Source: an uncultured Nitrososphaeria archaeon | GTDB taxonomy: Archaea > Thermoproteota > Nitrososphaeria_A > Caldarchaeales > Wolframiiraptoraceae | Length of the DNA: 64,000 nucleotides | NCBI GenBank assembly: GCA_964655015.1 | Contig: CAZZKR010000025.1 | Location: 10,064-74,063, forward strand | Reading direction: 5' to 3' | Shown: one piece after another, positions 7,420 to 51,630 of the stretch | Position numbering within the stretch: the first letter of the stretch is position 1 | Layout: every line of letters begins with the position of its first letter | Position numbers and translations under genes: made by a program | The notes under the pieces: model-generated | What the model was told of the DNA's origin: nothing | Database searches by the model: none | The model's input: only the letters and a program-made list of their open reading frames with translations

Positions 7420-7427
7420 TGAAAAAG

Positions 7428-7513
7428 CGCCGGGGCTGGGATTCGAACCCAGGCGACCCTTATCGGGTCACAGGCTCTCAAGGCCTGCGCCTTGTCCGCT
7501 AGGCTACCCCGGC
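7428..7513 (-). tRNA. tRNA-Ser (anticodon UGA), 86 nt with a long variable arm
   Basis: The reverse complement reads GCCGGGG-TA-GCCTAGCGGACAAGGC-G-CAGGC-CTTGAGA-GCCTG-TGACCCGATAAGGGTCGC-CTGGGTTCGAATCCCAG-CCCCGGC-G. It has a 7-bp acceptor stem, a TTCGAATCC T-loop and anticodon TGA. The 18-nt variable arm is typical of Ser. No CCA is encoded. Confidence 0.85.
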
Positions 7514-7535: not shown

Positions 7536-8587
7536 CTAAATCGAATCATTAAAATTTTTACTGCCCTTTTTCCAGACAGAAGGATAAGTGCCCCTATCCA
7601 TAATAACTCTATCAGTATCTACTGCTATCCCTTTAGTAGAGTCTAAGATTTCTTCGGTACTCATCTGCGCCTTACCAAGGGCAACCAGCTCGCCTTTTAG
7701 CGTCATGATTGCCACTTCGTCACCGCGTTTTATCCCCTCGTCAAGCTTAGATATGCCAACTACCGCTAGGTCGGCTCCATGACATATGGCATCAACGGCT
7801 GAATCTAATACATAGACTTTCGGTAAAAATCTGACAGCAGTCTCCACCGGCTGAACGACCTTCCTCAAAGTACGTTCTTCGCCATTTTCTTTATAAAGCT
7901 TGACAGCCTCGTACACATCTAATAACGTGACTGAACATCCCTCATCATAGGGTCCCGCCCTTGTCCTTCTAAGTTCTTGCATATGTGCTCCGCATCCTAG
8001 GTATAGCCCTATATCGTAACAATACTTTCTTATGTAAGTTCCACCAGAGCAAGCTATCCTCATCAGGACGTCCCTGCCGTTTCGTTCGATTATTTCTGCC
8101 GAATATATTGTCCTTATCCTAGGCTTTCTTGCAACGGACGACCTTACCGGTGGTATCTGGTATATCTGCCCAGTAAAGAGTTTTATTGCTTCAAAGAGTT
8201 TTTCGTCAGAAACATCATCATGTAACCTCATAAGACAGATGTATTCTTTCCCAGTTTGCATTATAGTCCTAGCACATTTTGTAGAGTCTTCTAAAAGTAT
8301 TGGTAACACACCAGAAACGGCCGGATGTCCCCAGGCTTAAAGCCTCCTAGGGTCCCGCCATGACCAGCCCGCTCGACACCCAACAAATCTTTTATTTTTG
8401 AAGATACCTCGTGACTTGTAGGCCCCCTTGGTTTATCGAGGTTAATGACGCCTAACCTTAAGTACATCCTGAGAGGCCTCTCATAGGGATTGTATCCATA
8501 CTTCGGGTCTGTTTCAGCTTCAAGCCTCACCACTACCTTTCTTTCATGTTGCCAGGGTGGGACGATTCCCCCAACAGCACTATTCAA
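7536..8587 (-). CDS. cbf5: H/ACA RNP pseudouridine synthase Cbf5, interrupted by a 20-nt intron: join(8587..8347, 8326..7536), about 343 aa
   Basis: Two adjacent ORFs (8291..8587 and 7536..8309) encode the N- and C-parts of Cbf5 (TruB catalytic domain plus PUA domain). Removing 8327..8346 restores [18 protein letters not shown]. Confidence 0.75.
8327..8346 (-). other. Putative archaeal mRNA (bulge-helix-bulge type) intron in cbf5
   Basis: On the minus sense the 20-nt GAGGCTTTAAGCCTGGGGAC separates CCCTAG and ATCCGG. Excising it restores frame and the conserved TLDP motif. It has an internal hairpin GGCT-TTA-AGCC. cbf5 introns are known in Crenarchaeota. Confidence 0.55.
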
Positions 8588-8861
8588 ACTTAACCTTCGC
8601 CTCCTCTTTCATAAAATCCACAAGTCCGGATTCCTGTATGGTTTTTAGTATCTCTTCATCCGATGCGTTCTCCTTTATGTTCAGTTTATATGGCGTAAAA
8701 GCTAGATGTGAAACGTTCACTTTTCTACGTCTGACACCGGTCAAACTTTTCGGCCCTGTCACTACGACAAAATTTTTATCAACAACGCTGACGATCACAC
8801 ATTTTTGTCCAGCCTCCCTACCCGCTATCTTGAAGCATATCCTTCCAATCTCAGCCTTCAT
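8580..8861 (-). CDS. rpl14e: 50S ribosomal protein L14e
   Basis: 93 aa with a KOW-like L14e signature (…[19 protein letters not shown]…). Confidence 0.8.
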
Positions 8862-10373: not shown

Positions 10374-13300
10374 TTAACTTTCAATGAAGCTTTCCAATGA
10401 AACCTGTCTTATAGCTGAAGATGTTTCATCCCGAGCTGTAAACGTGCTTCGAACGTTTTCTATTACTATGACAATCCTCTCCTTGAGGTATGGGGTACGT
10501 ATGTATTTAGATAACGTGTACTCTAACAAATCAACGTATTTCTCGATAGCACCGCGGAAAACCGTTTGTATTAAATTAGAGCCGCATTTATTACATTGAG
10601 CATTTAATGGAAGCCGCCTGAACTTGGTATTGCATTTTTTACATCTGAAACTTTGAATGAAAAATGCTTTCATGTTACCAGCAACGTCCGGAAGTATGTG
10701 CGATGATATGATATTCTCGACAACTTTTTCTATATTAACAGAGGATAGTTTTTCTGTTAACCTAATTTGGTCCACAACTTTTTCAAACATCGACCTACTC
10801 TGTTTATAAGCGGAAACCACGTTGGCGATGATGTTATGTGTTCGATGCGTAAATCCAAATCCACCGTACTGTTCAGTTGATCCAAGCTTCAACTTTATGG
10901 TCGCGATTAAGTTTGATAACTTAGCGGACGGTTCCCTCTTTTCTGCCAACTTATACAACTCTAATGGGTATACGTAGGCGACGTCTAAGTTATGCGCCTG
11001 TTCGTCAACCTCATCCGGATAAACTATCGGGGTTATCAGTAAAGGAGCATCCATCTTTCCGCCGATTCTATCGGGCAGGTATAGCCTAGAGAAGTTGATG
11101 AAAACGTCGAGTGGAAGCATTAGGCTATCCTCATCGCCATCACAATCGCGCCTTTTGGATGCATGAAAGAGTGGATGTGCAAAACATACATCACAATCCG
11201 TGAAACCAATAATCCTTCCTATCGTCGCCACGTAGGTGTGCGGGGAAAGCGATGCGACTAGCCTGCCAATCAGATCCTCGGGTTTATTGCACATATAATA
11301 AGGCTGCATACCAGCGAGCTTTTCCAGAAGTTCATCTATAAACCTGGAGACTTTAATGAGATGTTCAGCAGCCTTTCTGGGTATTATTAAATCTTGGGGC
11401 TTCAGCTCACATATCTGGTCAGCACTTACCAATGGTTCCCCTTTGATATCGTGCGTGTAGCCCAAACTTCTTAAAACGCTAACATCCGTTGAAATTTGAC
11501 GCGGCGTAAAATGAGTAAGTGGTGCATTCGTCACATCGAACCTAATAGTCCCATCTTTGTAAACGGAGAGACCGTATTTAGCCCTAAGAATACCTTTCGC
11601 AACATCTTCCGGGATTTTAATTCTACTTGTAAGTGCTCGAACTCCTTTAATCTTTGCAGGCATTTCGATAGATAATCGCTGACATTCTTGCAAAAATTCT
11701 GTCCTAACGTCCAGAGAAAACTTCTCTGTGTATGAAATCTTTCCTCCGCATTTTTCACAGTTTTTAATTTCGATATTATAATTTTTTTGCGAACATTTTG
11801 TGCATATGCCTAATGGTTTTCTTTTTGTACCGCAATTTTCGCAAACTACTTTCCAACCTATGGAACCGCATTTTGGACACTCTAGCCGGGCGGTTTCCAC
11901 GAATACCTTCTCTCCAGATTTGACGATGTTTGCTATATCTCTCGAAGCACCCCCTTTAAGACCTATCGGGAATAGTATGTGCACAGGCGGTTCCATCATC
12001 CTCATACCTGCCTTCTCCGGCCTGCCCATCCTTGCACCTAGAAACGTTCCGCTCTTTCTTCTCAGGTTTATGCCCGAAATTACGGATATTGCCTCTAGAG
12101 TATCGTTGATGGTATTCGGTATTTTCCTTGGTTGTGCCAGAAGTGCTAAGAGCACTCTGTAAGTTGATATATCAAGAACCATGTGTGTCCCATCAACTCT
12201 ATATTCGAGTAAGATCTTGATCAATATATCACGTATCGTTTCCGTGAATGGTAACCAAACCTTTCCGTTGTGGATTTTGCATTGCGTCTTAGATTTCTCT
12301 AACCAATCTCTTAACATCACCAACTCTTTTATGCTGATATTCTCCCAAAAACAACAGTAAGACGGATGAAGCGGAACTTTGAGCTTGAAGCTTAGCCTTA
12401 AAGCCTCCCTATCCGTTGGTTTGAAGATAAGAGGATCTTCTACCAAAAGTTTAAGGCGTCCAGGATTCATATCCAACATTCTTGCGACTTTTTCAATTCC
12501 ACCAGCCATTGTTATTTCCTTCTTTAACTCCAGTGCCCACCACTCTTCACAATAGCCGACCGGTCTAAGCTCAACGTTGTTCTCTATACAATCTCCGAAC
12601 GATATCAGGATGTCGCCGAGAAAAAGAATCTTTACGATTTTGTTTTTTACCTCCGCATAAGTTAGATCGTTATCAACCTTTACGACAGACCCATCATCAA
12701 GCAATACTCTCGGTGGCTCTATCGTGTCAACTGGCATGGCAACGCCGCCTTTTCCAGGATAATCAAGCTTTAATTGTGTGCCTGTTGCTATGTACCCCTC
12801 AAGTACTTTCATGGTCATAGGGTGCACACCGACGGCCGCCATGCCGGTGTTGTATGAACGGCCATACCTTAACCTAAATCCACCAAAAACATCCGGCAAG
12901 GAAAAAACTGGTCTACCCCCTATGACTTCGTTCAGATAACTTTCTTCAGCCGAACTCGCCGAGTGAATTTTGCTGAACTCCTCAGCAACCTCCTGTAACC
13001 ATTCCCATCCAGACAAACCGAGCATCTCGACGAGCTTAAGCGCCTTCCTCGCCCTTCCGATTATCCCGTCATTTACAACCCTAAGGGCGCCACCCCTTAA
13101 GTAGTTCGTCTCAACCCTAGGTAGATTCCTATAGGATGGTGCTAGAATATTGTCCGTAGGAATACCTGTAATCTCTATTGGTATGTTTCTTAACGCTTTT
13201 TCTACCAAGTGATCCGGAACATTATACTGAAACCTGCTGACCATGCGCACATAGGTCCTAAGCTCTTCTTTGAATCGCTTAATCTCCTCCTCAGTGGGCT

Positions 13301-13820
13301 TATACCTGTCTAGGTTTAACAATCTTCTGATATAATCCGCCAGTATGACGGTCGCTGTAAGCTCGGTTCCACCAGCCGCCCTTATAGGACCCGCAAAATA
13401 AACTGCTAAGTAGCTTGAACCATCTGGGTTCTTTTTGATCTTCACATCCGCAATCCCCTCGCTCGGTGCAGCGGTTATACAGGGCGGCGTCATGACAGCG
13501 AGTGCGGTACAGAGTGCCTGCTTGATAGCGACCTCTTCTTTTAGTTTTCCTATCGAACTATATATGATATCTTCTGCCAACTTAAACGCTAGACGCTCCC
13601 TTGAAAGCTTGTTTTTTAGAAACCTTATCTTCTCGGCGATACCTTGTGGACCGACAAGTAACTCGACCCTCTCAGCCATATCTTCTGCGATTATTGTCTC
13701 GACTTTATCGACAACTGTGCCTAACTTTTTCCTTACCTCAGATGCTATCCTATATTCTTCCTTGACCTTTTCCACTATCTGAGCATAATATTCAGCGAAC
13801 TCAGGCGGTATTCTGTACAA
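10374..13820 (-). CDS. polC: DNA polymerase II (PolD) large subunit DP2
   Basis: 1148 aa with a catalytic DCDGDED motif and Zn-binding Cys clusters (CPKCGS…CENCG; CKKCNTKF…CNKCGS). Size and architecture match DP2. DP1 is not adjacent. Confidence 0.75.
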   Translation of the reverse strand: MYRIPPEFAEYYAQIVEKVKEEYRIASEVRKKLGTVVDKVETIIAEDMAERVELLVGPQGIAEKIRFLKNKLSRERLAFKLAEDIIYSSIGKLKEEVAIKQALCTALAVMTPPCITAAPSEGIADVKIKKNPDGSSYLAVYFAGPIRAAGGTELTATVILADYIRRLLNLDRYKPTEEEIKRFKEELRTYVRMVSRFQYNVPDHLVEKALRNIPIEITGIPTDNILAPSYRNLPRVETNYLRGGALRVVNDGIIGRARKALKLVEMLGLSGWEWLQEVAEEFSKIHSASSAEESYLNEVIGGRPVFSLPDVFGGFRLRYGRSYNTGMAAVGVHPMTMKVLEGYIATGTQLKLDYPGKGGVAMPVDTIEPPRVLLDDGSVVKVDNDLTYAEVKNKIVKILFLGDILISFGDCIENNVELRPVGYCEEWWALELKKEITMAGGIEKVARMLDMNPGRLKLLVEDPLIFKPTDREALRLSFKLKVPLHPSYCCFWENISIKELVMLRDWLEKSKTQCKIHNGKVWLPFTETIRDILIKILLEYRVDGTHMVLDISTYRVLLALLAQPRKIPNTINDTLEAISVISGINLRRKSGTFLGARMGRPEKAGMRMMEPPVHILFPIGLKGGASRDIANIVKSGEKVFVETARLECPKCGSIGWKVVCENCGTKRKPLGICTKCSQKNYNIEIKNCEKCGGKISYTEKFSLDVRTEFLQECQRLSIEMPAKIKGVRALTSRIKIPEDVAKGILRAKYGLSVYKDGTIRFDVTNAPLTHFTPRQISTDVSVLRSLGYTHDIKGEPLVSADQICELKPQDLIIPRKAAEHLIKVSRFIDELLEKLAGMQPYYMCNKPEDLIGRLVASLSPHTYVATIGRIIGFTDCDVCFAHPLFHASKRRDCDGDEDSLMLPLDVFINFSRLYLPDRIGGKMDAPLLITPIVYPDEVDEQAHNLDVAYVYPLELYKLAEKREPSAKLSNLIATIKLKLGSTEQYGGFGFTHRTHNIIANVVSAYKQSRSMFEKVVDQIRLTEKLSSVNIEKVVENIISSHILPDVAGNMKAFFIQSFRCKKCNTKFRRLPLNAQCNKCGSNLIQTVFRGAIEKYVDLLEYTLSKYIRTPYLKERIVIVIENVRSTFTARDETSSAIRQVSLESFIES

Positions 13821-50339: not shown

Positions 50340-50486
50340 GTGAAGGTCGTAACCGTTCACCTTCCAGAGGTTTACCTCGACGTGATAGACGAGCTTGTAA
50401 GAAGAAAGCTTTACCCCAACAGGGCTGAGGCAATAAGAACGGCAGTTAGAGATTTCATAATGGAGGAGATGCCGGCAAGTGAGTGA
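50340..50486 (+). CDS. Ribbon-helix-helix (CopG/CdrS-like) protein, 48 aa, translationally coupled to ftsZ
   Basis: Not in the ORF track. The GTG-initiated VKVVTVHLPEVYLDVIDELVRRKLYPNRAEAIRTAVRDFIMEEMPASE has an RHH beta-strand-helix-helix pattern. Its stop overlaps the ftsZ GTG start by 8 nt. Confidence 0.6.
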   Translation: MKVVTVHLPEVYLDVIDELVRRKLYPNRAEAIRTAVRDFIMEEMPASE

Positions 50487-51630
50487 GATTATGCTCCCTG
50501 GTTCTAATGATGTTGAAAGAGTTGACGGGATTCGTATAAAGCTAGTCGGTATAGGTGGTGCTGGCTGTAACACGATCAGCCGACTGGCATCACAGGGATT
50601 GAATGGTGTTGTAACGATCGCTGCAAACACTGACGTACAACATCTAGAGATGATTAGAGCTCATCACAAAATCGTGCTTGGAAAAAACACGACAAGGTTT
50701 AGGGGCTCTGGCGGAGACCCGGAAAAAGGTAGGATAGCAACCGAAGAATGCGAGGACGAATTTAGAAATTTGCTCAGCGACGCCGACATAGTTTTTGTGA
50801 TGGCAGGCTTGGGCGGTGGCACTGGTACTGGAGGTGCGCCTGTGATTGCTTCGATAGCAAAAGAGTTAGGGGCTATAGTTATCAGCGTAGCGACCTTGCC
50901 TTTCAAATTCGAAGGTAATGTTCGAAAGAGAATAGCAATACAAGGATTGCAAAGGCTAAAAGAAGTATGCAACACCGTGGTGCTAATAGATAACAATAAG
51001 TTGCTCGATTTCTATCCACAGTATGAGTTAAGGACTGCCTTCTCATTGGTTGACGATGTCATAAACAATATGATGCTTAGTATAACCGAGTCGATAGTGA
51101 AACCGAGCTTGATAAACATAGACTACGCAGATTTCAAAGCACTTGTTGAAAGGGGTAACTTGGCATCTTTAGGTATAGGCAGATCCTCGTCACCAAACAG
51201 GGCTGAAGAAGCCACTTTCAATGCCTTGCAATCACCGCTACTCGACATAACCTACGATAAGCTGTCGGGCGCAATAGTACACGTCACAGGTGGTGAAGAT
51301 ATGAAGCTGAGCGAAGCTGCAAGACCAGCAGAGATAATATCGGAGCTAATGGGCATGGACACTCTTGTAATATGGGGCGCGAGGATCGATAACTATTATG
51401 CTTCGAGCATACAGGTATCGTTAATACTCACGGGGCTTAGTGACAAATTCAGCAGCAGTGCTGAAATTGATGCTGTAAACTTACCAAAAACGAATGAGGA
51501 ATTCAAAATCCCACAACCTGCCGTCCCTGCTCAACCCACTGTCGACAATGAGTTAGAATATGAGTTAGAAAGAATAGTGGCCGAGCTCGGAATTAGAAGA
51601 CTTTCAATAGAAAATGCACACGCACACTGA
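50479..51630 (+). CDS. ftsZ: Cell division GTPase FtsZ
   Basis: 383 aa with tubulin/FtsZ signatures (GIGGAGCNTISRL and GGGTGTGGAPVIA), a T7-loop region and a C-terminal tail. Confidence 0.85.
   Translation: MSEIMLPGSNDVERVDGIRIKLVGIGGAGCNTISRLASQGLNGVVTIAANTDVQHLEMIRAHHKIVLGKNTTRFRGSGGDPEKGRIATEECEDEFRNLLSDADIVFVMAGLGGGTGTGGAPVIASIAKELGAIVISVATLPFKFEGNVRKRIAIQGLQRLKEVCNTVVLIDNNKLLDFYPQYELRTAFSLVDDVINNMMLSITESIVKPSLINIDYADFKALVERGNLASLGIGRSSSPNRAEEATFNALQSPLLDITYDKLSGAIVHVTGGEDMKLSEAARPAEIISELMGMDTLVIWGARIDNYYASSIQVSLILTGLSDKFSSSAEIDAVNLPKTNEEFKIPQPAVPAQPTVDNELEYELERIVAELGIRRLSIENAHAH

Follow-up and report, generated by a model that had tools for sequence, protein, structure and literature searches.

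The textbook case of splicing in a protein-coding archaeal gene is the intron of cbf5, which was long the only one. The earlier sources on this crenarchaeal pre-mRNA intron are reportedly Watanabe 2002 and Yoshinari 2006. Here we analyzed a stretch of 64,000 nucleotides (nt) from contig CAZZKR010000025.1 of an uncultured hot-spring archaeon (hereafter the window), in which the H/ACA pseudouridine synthase gene cbf5, encoded on the minus strand, is interrupted by 20 nt at 8346..8327. We conclude, with a probability of about 90%, that these 20 nt are a bulge-helix-bulge (BHB) intron spliced from the cbf5 pre-mRNA, because a unique junction restores the reading frame, the motif fits exactly, the structure covaries in relatives and the position is shared with the validated crenarchaeal intron. 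This class of intron is already known; what is new is its taxonomic range, with Caldarchaeales and Bathyarchaeia as a clear extension.

Introns in cbf5 have been described in Aeropyrum pernix, Sulfolobus/Saccharolobus and other Desulfurococcales and Sulfolobales (Yokobori 2009, PMC2738675). They measure 16-44 base pairs (bp), with 20 bp in Acidianus ambivalens and A. infernus, lie between bases 1 and 2 of the catalytic aspartate (Asp) codon and are cut between residues 2 and 3 of the BHB bulges (PMC2738675). Splicing was confirmed in several crenarchaeal species by complementary DNA (cDNA) and by assays with the splicing endonuclease EndA (PMC2738675). The insert in the window resembles these introns in host gene, insertion point and size class, and like them is short and holds no open reading frame (ORF). 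The initial annotation of the window had proposed an archaeal BHB mRNA intron of the type known in Crenarchaeota, and the comparison of positions supports this, as the insert lies at the very point published. The architecture is likewise the same in a Sulfolobales-like locus from our collection (L086), AG/A GCCCUAAAAGGGC GGGG UA/A, and in the window, AG/G AGGCUUUAAGCCU GGGG AC/A, slashes marking the cuts. The window differs from the published cases in its host, a member of Caldarchaeales and not of Desulfurococcales or Sulfolobales, and in its strict BHB motif, whereas most crenarchaeal cases were described as unconventional (relaxed) (PMC2738675). Splicing of crenarchaeal cbf5 is experimentally confirmed, whereas the window case is read from sequence.

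The survey of 2009 found the intron in Desulfurococcales and Sulfolobales only, and none in Cenarchaeum, Nitrosopumilus, Korarchaeum or Thermoproteales (PMC2738675). The host of the window falls outside that restriction, which we treat as a reflection of the sampling of its time and not of the mechanism; the present case is accordingly treated as an extension of the range. As late as 2020 the one in the cbf5 mRNA of crenarchaeota was named as the sole further BHB intron to have been reported from archaea (PMC7714728), and work of 2025 on the splicing endonucleases of archaea refers to the same three cbf5-intron sources. Earlier authors suggested a negative regulatory role for the intron. In the open-access literature we found no mention of a cbf5 intron in Aigarchaeota, Caldarchaeales, Thaumarchaeota or Bathyarchaeota, although earlier reports are possible, and the description of the Wolframiiraptoraceae does not mention one.

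Other archaeal BHB introns offer a second comparison. Those of transfer RNA (tRNA) and ribosomal RNA (rRNA), which are processed by EndA and RtcB, share with the window the 3-4-3 structure, the predicted cut positions and the size of a short tRNA intron. Unlike them, the window intron lies in a protein-coding frame, so that splicing decides both the frame and the catalytic codon, and it has no tRNA body to aid recognition. Reports on the related Caldarchaeales member Caldiarchaeum subterraneum describe a splicing endonuclease of the heterotetrameric type and numerous tRNA introns with a BHB (PMC3082918). The intron in the 5' untranslated region of Haloferax volcanii HVO_1309 is, like ours, a BHB element of an mRNA, and is cut there by the splicing endonuclease (PMC7714728); it resides in an untranslated region of a euryarchaeon, whereas the window intron interrupts a codon.

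On the minus strand the sequence reads GGT CAT GGC GGG ACC CTA G, then GAGGCTTTAAGCCTGGGGAC, then AT CCG GCC GTT TCT GGT GTG TTA CCA. Exon 1 ends with the residues GHGGTL and a G, base 1 of the catalytic Asp codon. Exon 2 opens with AT, bases 2 and 3 of that codon, continues with CCG GCC GTT and closes with the stop codon at 7538..7536. The insert thus divides the catalytic codon as G/AT. We enumerated every deletion with a length of 2 mod 3 (2-119 nt) and a start position between 8291 and 8400. The frame stays open after 2672 of them, and exactly one, that of 8327..8346, yields TLD/LDP, so that the earlier statement that no other deletion of this kind gives the TLDP context holds. Removal of 8346..8327 restores a full-length Cbf5 of 343 amino acids (aa), whose residues 11-338 align with Pyrococcus furiosus Cbf5 (2hvy_A) at E = 1e-114; the AGHGGTLDP and VSGVLP blocks are the same in both proteins, and one residue differs between the blocks. 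In Pfam searches the spliced product contains DKCLD, all of TruB_N (profile positions 1-149 of 149), TruB_C_2 and PUA, whereas the ORF of exon 2 alone matches only positions 71-149 of TruB_N and the ORF of exon 1 matches DKCLD only.

Without splicing, the frame of exon 1 continues for 18 codons past the 5' splice site and gives a 98-aa peptide that lacks the catalytic Asp. The largest ORF downstream of the break starts at GTG 8309, and the catalytic Asp is absent from it as well. We therefore rejected an enzyme made of two polypeptides, since neither ORF has this residue. The start of cbf5 was taken as TTG 8587, with GTG 8533, GTG 8530 and ATG 8467 as alternatives. GTG 8533 or 8530 could be the true start, because relatives outside Terraquivivens align only from residue 7-10.

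Folding of the 80-nt RNA window:8297-8376(-), to which the residue numbers in Table 1 refer, places a strict hBHBh' motif at the site. Two opposite 3-nt bulges flank a 4-bp central helix, CCCU/GGGG, which is closed on the exonic side by an outer helix of 3 bp and on the intronic side by an inner helix of 4-5 bp, where at least two Watson-Crick pairs are called for on each side. Cuts after nucleotide 2 of each bulge coincide exactly with the junctions defined by protein alignment, 8347/8346 and 8327/8326. The small hairpin GGCT-TTA-AGCC reported in the initial annotation is real, and it is the intron-internal helix of the motif. The same annotation had held that a strict hBHBh' does not fit these junctions and that the element was a relaxed BHB or something else. 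This proved wrong: the motif is strict for the window sequence, both cuts fall on the protein-defined junctions, and the fold has a predicted energy of -33.5 kcal/mol, compared with -33.9 for the unconstrained minimum, a difference of 0.4 kcal/mol.

Table 1. Features of the cbf5 locus and of the rest of the window (positions in the 64,000-nt stretch; residue numbers are those of the 80-nt RNA).
Feature	Position	Strand	Basis or detail
cbf5 exon 1	8347..8587	minus	DKCLD (E = 2e-20) and beginning of TruB_N
BHB intron, 20 nt, GAGGCUUUAAGCCUGGGGAC (predicted)	8327..8346	minus	single occurrence in window
cbf5 exon 2	7536..8326	minus	rest of TruB_N, TruB_C_2, PUA
TAG ending unspliced translation	8291..8293	minus	
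Complete hBHBh' splicing motif in pre-mRNA	8317..8361	minus	folding and covariation
Extended outer helix	8361..8357 with 8321..8317	minus	5 pairs beyond G.G mismatch
Outer helix	8355..8353 with 8325..8323	minus	G22-C54, G23-C53, A24-U52
Central 4-bp helix	8352..8349 with 8332..8329	minus	C25-G48, C26-G47, C27-G46, U28-G45
5' bulge A29 G30/G31 (AGG)	8348..8346	minus	cut 8347/8346
Inner hairpin	8345..8341 with 8337..8333, loop 8340..8338	minus	A32-U44, G33-C43, G34-C42, C35-G41, U36-A40
3' bulge A49 C50/A51 (ACA)	8328..8326	minus	cut 8327/8326
Upstream gene with KOW motif (L14e-like)	8580..8861	minus	Pfam: KOW motif only
tRNA-Ser(UGA)	7427..7513	minus	22 nt downstream of cbf5 stop codon; intronless
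PolD large subunit DP2	10377..13820	minus	Pfam
FtsZ-like ORF	about 50479..51630	plus	recognised from sequence motif only

Homologous loci were collected in two sets. Set 1 comprised the 80 best loci, with one genome per species. Four loci (L001, L005, L007 and L008) carry the same 20-nt intron, in which the loop alone varies (UUUAA, UUAAA, UUUGA), and L022, from Candidatus (Ca.) Pelearchaeum, has a 22-nt intron at the same site. In 21 Bathyarchaeia genomes (L016, L020, L028-L031, L035, L039, L042, L045, L052, L055, L059, L063, L065, L069, L071, L073, L076, L079 and L080), BHB introns of 18-39 nt divide the codon in the same way, after G and before AY. The remaining 54 loci are intronless; they include Wolframiiraptor, ten other Nitrososphaeria/'Aigarchaeota', Methanomethylicia, Odinarchaeota, many Euryarchaeota and L017, the sole locus of the set with a Bathyarchaeia label and no intron. 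A more distant relative (L081, 76% protein identity), recovered from a sequencing-run assembly, has an intron of 18 nt whose hairpin differs. Two records bear titles that do not match their content: L008 (JAGTRG010000051.1) is titled 'Candidatus Bathyarchaeota' yet is Terraquivivens-like (86% protein and 81% DNA identity with the window, same 20-nt intron), and L062 (JAIWAT010000001.1) is titled 'Anaerolineales bacterium' yet has an archaeal cbf5. Both titles are probably the result of binning errors.

Set 2 came from a metagenome scan in which crenarchaeal Cbf5 sequences, given in the supplement to PMC2738675, were the bait. Because the region used as bait is located some 80 nt downstream of the intron, the sample is unbiased by intron frame. 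We transcribed the crenarchaeal alignment (A2) from supplementary text that had been read by machine, and it has errors; it was used as bait alone, and conclusions were drawn from the retrieved DNA. Of the 74 loci that could be classified, 51 have an intron at this position; many of the metagenome contigs with such introns are from hot springs. Introns of Sulfolobales-like loci (59-69% identity to S. acidocaldarius) are 19-32 nt long, in line with the published sizes, and the homologous introns overall span 14-39 nt, with lengths in all three phases. The impression that introns of Bathyarchaeia are all multiples of three was discarded, since this artefact arose when loci were ranked by a tblastn query extending across the junction; in the scan with the downstream query, 10, 16 and 17 introns have lengths with remainders of 0, 1 and 2, respectively. 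At the lower end of the range, L161 (Ga0105162_1001805), whose cbf5 is of Nitrososphaeria type with the signature PAVSGVLP, has a mini-intron of 14 nt (AGGUAAUCGAGGAG) at the same site, just upstream of the match at 1201. This is below the published minimum of 16 bp, and its inner helix has only 2 bp while its outer helix has 12 bp. The cbf5 of L110, which groups next to Methanomethylicia, also has an intron at this site, as do the metagenome contigs L111, L119 and L127, which belong to a clade with the signature AHAGTLDPKVSGILP; across these loci the introns measure 20-24 nt.

The structure is conserved far beyond the sequence of the window. Both sets together hold 72 distinct junctions, and the central helix is paired at four of four positions in all 72, in forms that include CCCU/GGGG, CUCU/GGAG, CUCU/AGAG and CCUU/AAGG. 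Where the Thr or Leu codon of exon 1 has changed synonymously, the intron has thus changed to match. In an alignment of 27 sequences (A1), 93.9% of cells are paired, compared with 51-57% when the partners are slid by one column. Changes on both sides occur at 6 pairs, including swaps between CG and UA at two pairs of the central helix and double changes at all four pairs of the inner helix. The covariation score of A1 was 0.412, against 0.195 for shuffled alignments, and was reached by none of 500 shuffles. Without a supplied structure, RNAalifold predicts the same two bulges, central helix and inner helix, with the outer helix in a register shifted by one base and an A left unpaired; for the window sequence the canonical register is the more stable. 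An outer helix of 3 bp or more in the canonical register is present in 36 of the 72 homologues, and the others are relaxed, like most of the published crenarchaeal cases. Exon bases fixed by the G-T-L-D-P codons make up the entire outer helix and half of the central one.

Several observations weigh against splicing of the insert, or lower the value of the motif as evidence for it. The unconstrained optimum pairs the 5' bulge AGG with the CCU of the inner hairpin in a 10-bp helix, so that in the folding model the BHB is a near-isoenergetic alternative and not the predicted optimum, from 37 to 85 °C alike. The BHB motif by itself is not significant, because a strict scan of the window (about 1.4e7 position/length combinations) gave 217 matches, no more than the 171-226 found in random sequence. 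Among close relatives in the protein collection all calls consist of exon 2 only and none reflects a spliced cDNA; we found no full-length (spliced-type) close homologue above 85% identity there. Finally, a screen of 10 mid-sized ORFs of the 64-kb window identified no gene for EndA or RtcB. In favour of splicing, by contrast, counts the coincidence of the motif with the sole protein-defined junction, for which the chance is about 1.6e-5 (217 in 1.4e7, per position/length combination). The AGG/AGG repeat behind the competing 10-bp helix is specific to the Terraquivivens clade, and the helix could be a structural switch, or else be meaningless.

Strict and relaxed BHB scans of the whole window revealed no second protein-coding intron. 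The 12 top-ranking candidates for a fusion of two long ORFs were rejected as ordinary neighbouring genes. These pairs presumably include an aIF2-gamma-like gene and the next gene, an RNase HII-like gene and an NTPase, and a protease and an aminotransferase, as we read the sequences in the absence of a tool match. Group I and group II self-splicing introns were rejected as well, as 20 nt are too short for a catalytic core of hundreds of nucleotides. At the Rfam gathering threshold the tRNA is the sole match in the window, and Rfam has no family for the cbf5 intron. No further copy of the intron sequence, which would have pointed to mobility, was found in the window with up to 3 mismatches allowed.

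We considered whether the 20 nt might be a frameshift insertion that kills the gene, leaving a pseudogene, or an error of sequencing or assembly. Automatic gene callers do see two ORFs here: the 90%-identity protein cluster has 19 members, each of them shortened to 231-257 aa, and the callers additionally give a separate DKCLD ORF of 82-98 aa (clusters of P0048, P0002 and P0053). However, the exact exon-2 product of the window occurs on 16 contigs of the public collection, and the 80-nt junction is identical in the four loci retrieved, all from independent assemblies: JGI 3300000082 (a record named GBSSSed77C), JGI 3300009598, ENA ERZ27289263 and ENA ERZ27245611. Over 3.7 kb these loci have 3-6 mismatches to the window. 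An assembly artefact, which the initial annotation had named as a possible refutation, is excluded because the junction is identical in these independently assembled contigs, and the break that it had described in cbf5 is real. Moreover, both exons remain open and conserved even where species share no more than 81-88% DNA identity, the structure with its compensatory changes is kept over 72 distinct variants, and no second copy of cbf5 was seen in the window. A dead gene or an error is thus a highly improbable explanation. Every public gene call that we inspected for the Terraquivivens clade truncates or splits cbf5, and a conserved housekeeping gene is therefore mis-annotated in the genomes of this clade. 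Some of the calls are named 'H/ACA ribonucleoprotein complex subunit 4'.

The content of the introns bears on how the interrupted message is read. A stop codon in the frame of exon 1 occurs in 54 of the 72 distinct introns, compared with 13 for either of the other two frames. An in-frame stop is present in all 34 introns with a length divisible by three; it is typically a UAA located in the loop of the hairpin, third in the codon count from the split Asp codon. An internal stop is missing from 18 introns, among them that of the window, and every one of these changes the reading frame. No unspliced mRNA would therefore encode the full-length protein, because each intron either shifts the frame or carries an in-frame stop. 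Selection may have favoured the stops because they prevent a full-length Cbf5 whose active site is disrupted, which might compete for partners of the H/ACA ribonucleoprotein (RNP), and the rule suggests a testable selective logic for the retention of the intron.

These data also bear on recoding, in which ribosomes would bypass or frameshift over the insert without RNA splicing, as in phage T4 gene 60. A short gap with a stable hairpin, after which unspliced translation soon stops, has the look of such a site. Yet the Asp codon is split as G/AT, so that no hop between matching codons recreates TLDP, and a hop from GGA to GGG would read GD and then IRPF, out of frame. Nor would recoding account for inserts of 14-39 nt in all three phases, in which BHB geometry is the sole common trait, or for the in-frame stops in most of them, and the homologous crenarchaeal inserts are missing from cDNA (PMC2738675). 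We regard bypass as very unlikely, and retain splicing as the explanation of the insert.

We propose the following course of splicing. The cbf5 gene would be transcribed, probably jointly with the upstream L14e-like gene, and bases of exon and intron would fold into the canonical hBHBh' motif. The tRNA-splicing endonuclease EndA would then cut after nucleotide 2 of each 3-nt bulge, and a ligase of the RtcB type would join the exons and so recreate the GAU codon of the catalytic aspartate. Only the spliced message would encode active, full-length Cbf5; the unspliced message would give the 98-aa fragment. For this lineage we infer cleavage by EndA and ligation by RtcB because homologues of the intron are validated and the archaeal tRNA-splicing machinery is universal, and any regulatory role is putative. 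Since the motif of the window is strict, any type of EndA should accept it.

The distribution of the intron raises the question of its age. In a rough neighbour-joining tree of 200 exon-2 residues of this one protein, built with no support values, L161, Pelearchaeum, L081 and Terraquivivens, all with the intron, surround one clade that lacks it (Wolframiiraptor and others), and the Bathyarchaeia are mostly intron-bearing with a few intron-less subclades. By these sequences, this looks like deep ancestry of the cbf5 intron with repeated loss. We tentatively suggest, at somewhat less than even odds, that the intron in the Asp codon is ancient across the Thermoproteota (TACK), has been lost repeatedly and is kept by selection as an on-switch that depends on splicing; the lineages concerned would be Sulfolobales, Desulfurococcales, Bathyarchaeia, Caldarchaeales and a relative of Methanomethylicia. 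If so, the output of Cbf5 would be coupled to the RNA-splicing capacity of the cell, and a dominant-negative, catalytically dead Cbf5 could never arise.

Alternatively, a spliced BHB intron may have been gained independently at a preferred site, GGN-ACN-CUN-G/AY-CCN, and the intron of the window would then be an analogue and not a homologue of the crenarchaeal one. The site is pre-adapted, in that the exon half of the motif is fixed by the conserved G-T-L-D-P codons; the inner hairpins vary by lineage, with AGGCU/AGCCU in the window and GCCC/GGGC in Sulfolobales-like loci; and the distribution is patchy, as Wolframiiraptor and many Nitrososphaeria have no intron. On the other hand, phase and position are identical in every lineage, and loss fits better the branching of intron-bearing Caldarchaeales around one intron-less clade, within the limits of the single-protein tree described above. 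We also know of no mechanism of insertion for such mini-introns. Independent gain therefore appears unlikely, although it deserves consideration beside an ancient origin with repeated loss. The presence of the intron in Caldarchaeales and in most sampled Bathyarchaeia either pushes its origin below the ancestor of Desulfurococcales and Sulfolobales inferred in 2009 or marks a recurrent site, and both readings bear on how introns of archaeal genes arise and persist.

Sequence identity assigns the host to Ca. Terraquivivens (Wolframiiraptoraceae, Caldarchaeales), outside the classical Crenarchaeota, as the initial annotation had suspected. The window is syntenic with Ca. Terraquivivens yellowstonensis, at 87.6% nucleotide identity over 7 kb, and three further relatives are 81-85% identical to it. 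The NCBI taxonomy places the genus Terraquivivens in Wolframiiraptoraceae, Nitrososphaerota; Caldarchaeales is the group formerly named 'Aigarchaeota' (PMC9246946).

On the minus strand of the window the gene order is L14e-like gene, cbf5 and tRNA-Ser(UGA). The first of these is read as a gene for ribosomal protein L14e from its N-terminal sequence and may be called L14e-like. The putative start of cbf5 overlaps its last codons by 8 nt (8580..8587), and the overlap suggests that the two genes probably form a single transcription unit. The same order of the L14e-like gene and cbf5 is found in L081 and L162-L165. Elsewhere in the window, of the two genes that the initial annotation had listed as PolD and FtsZ, the former stands, its DP2 subunit being recovered by Pfam, while the latter is an FtsZ-like ORF by motif; both agree with the earlier remark on a non-crenarchaeal host.

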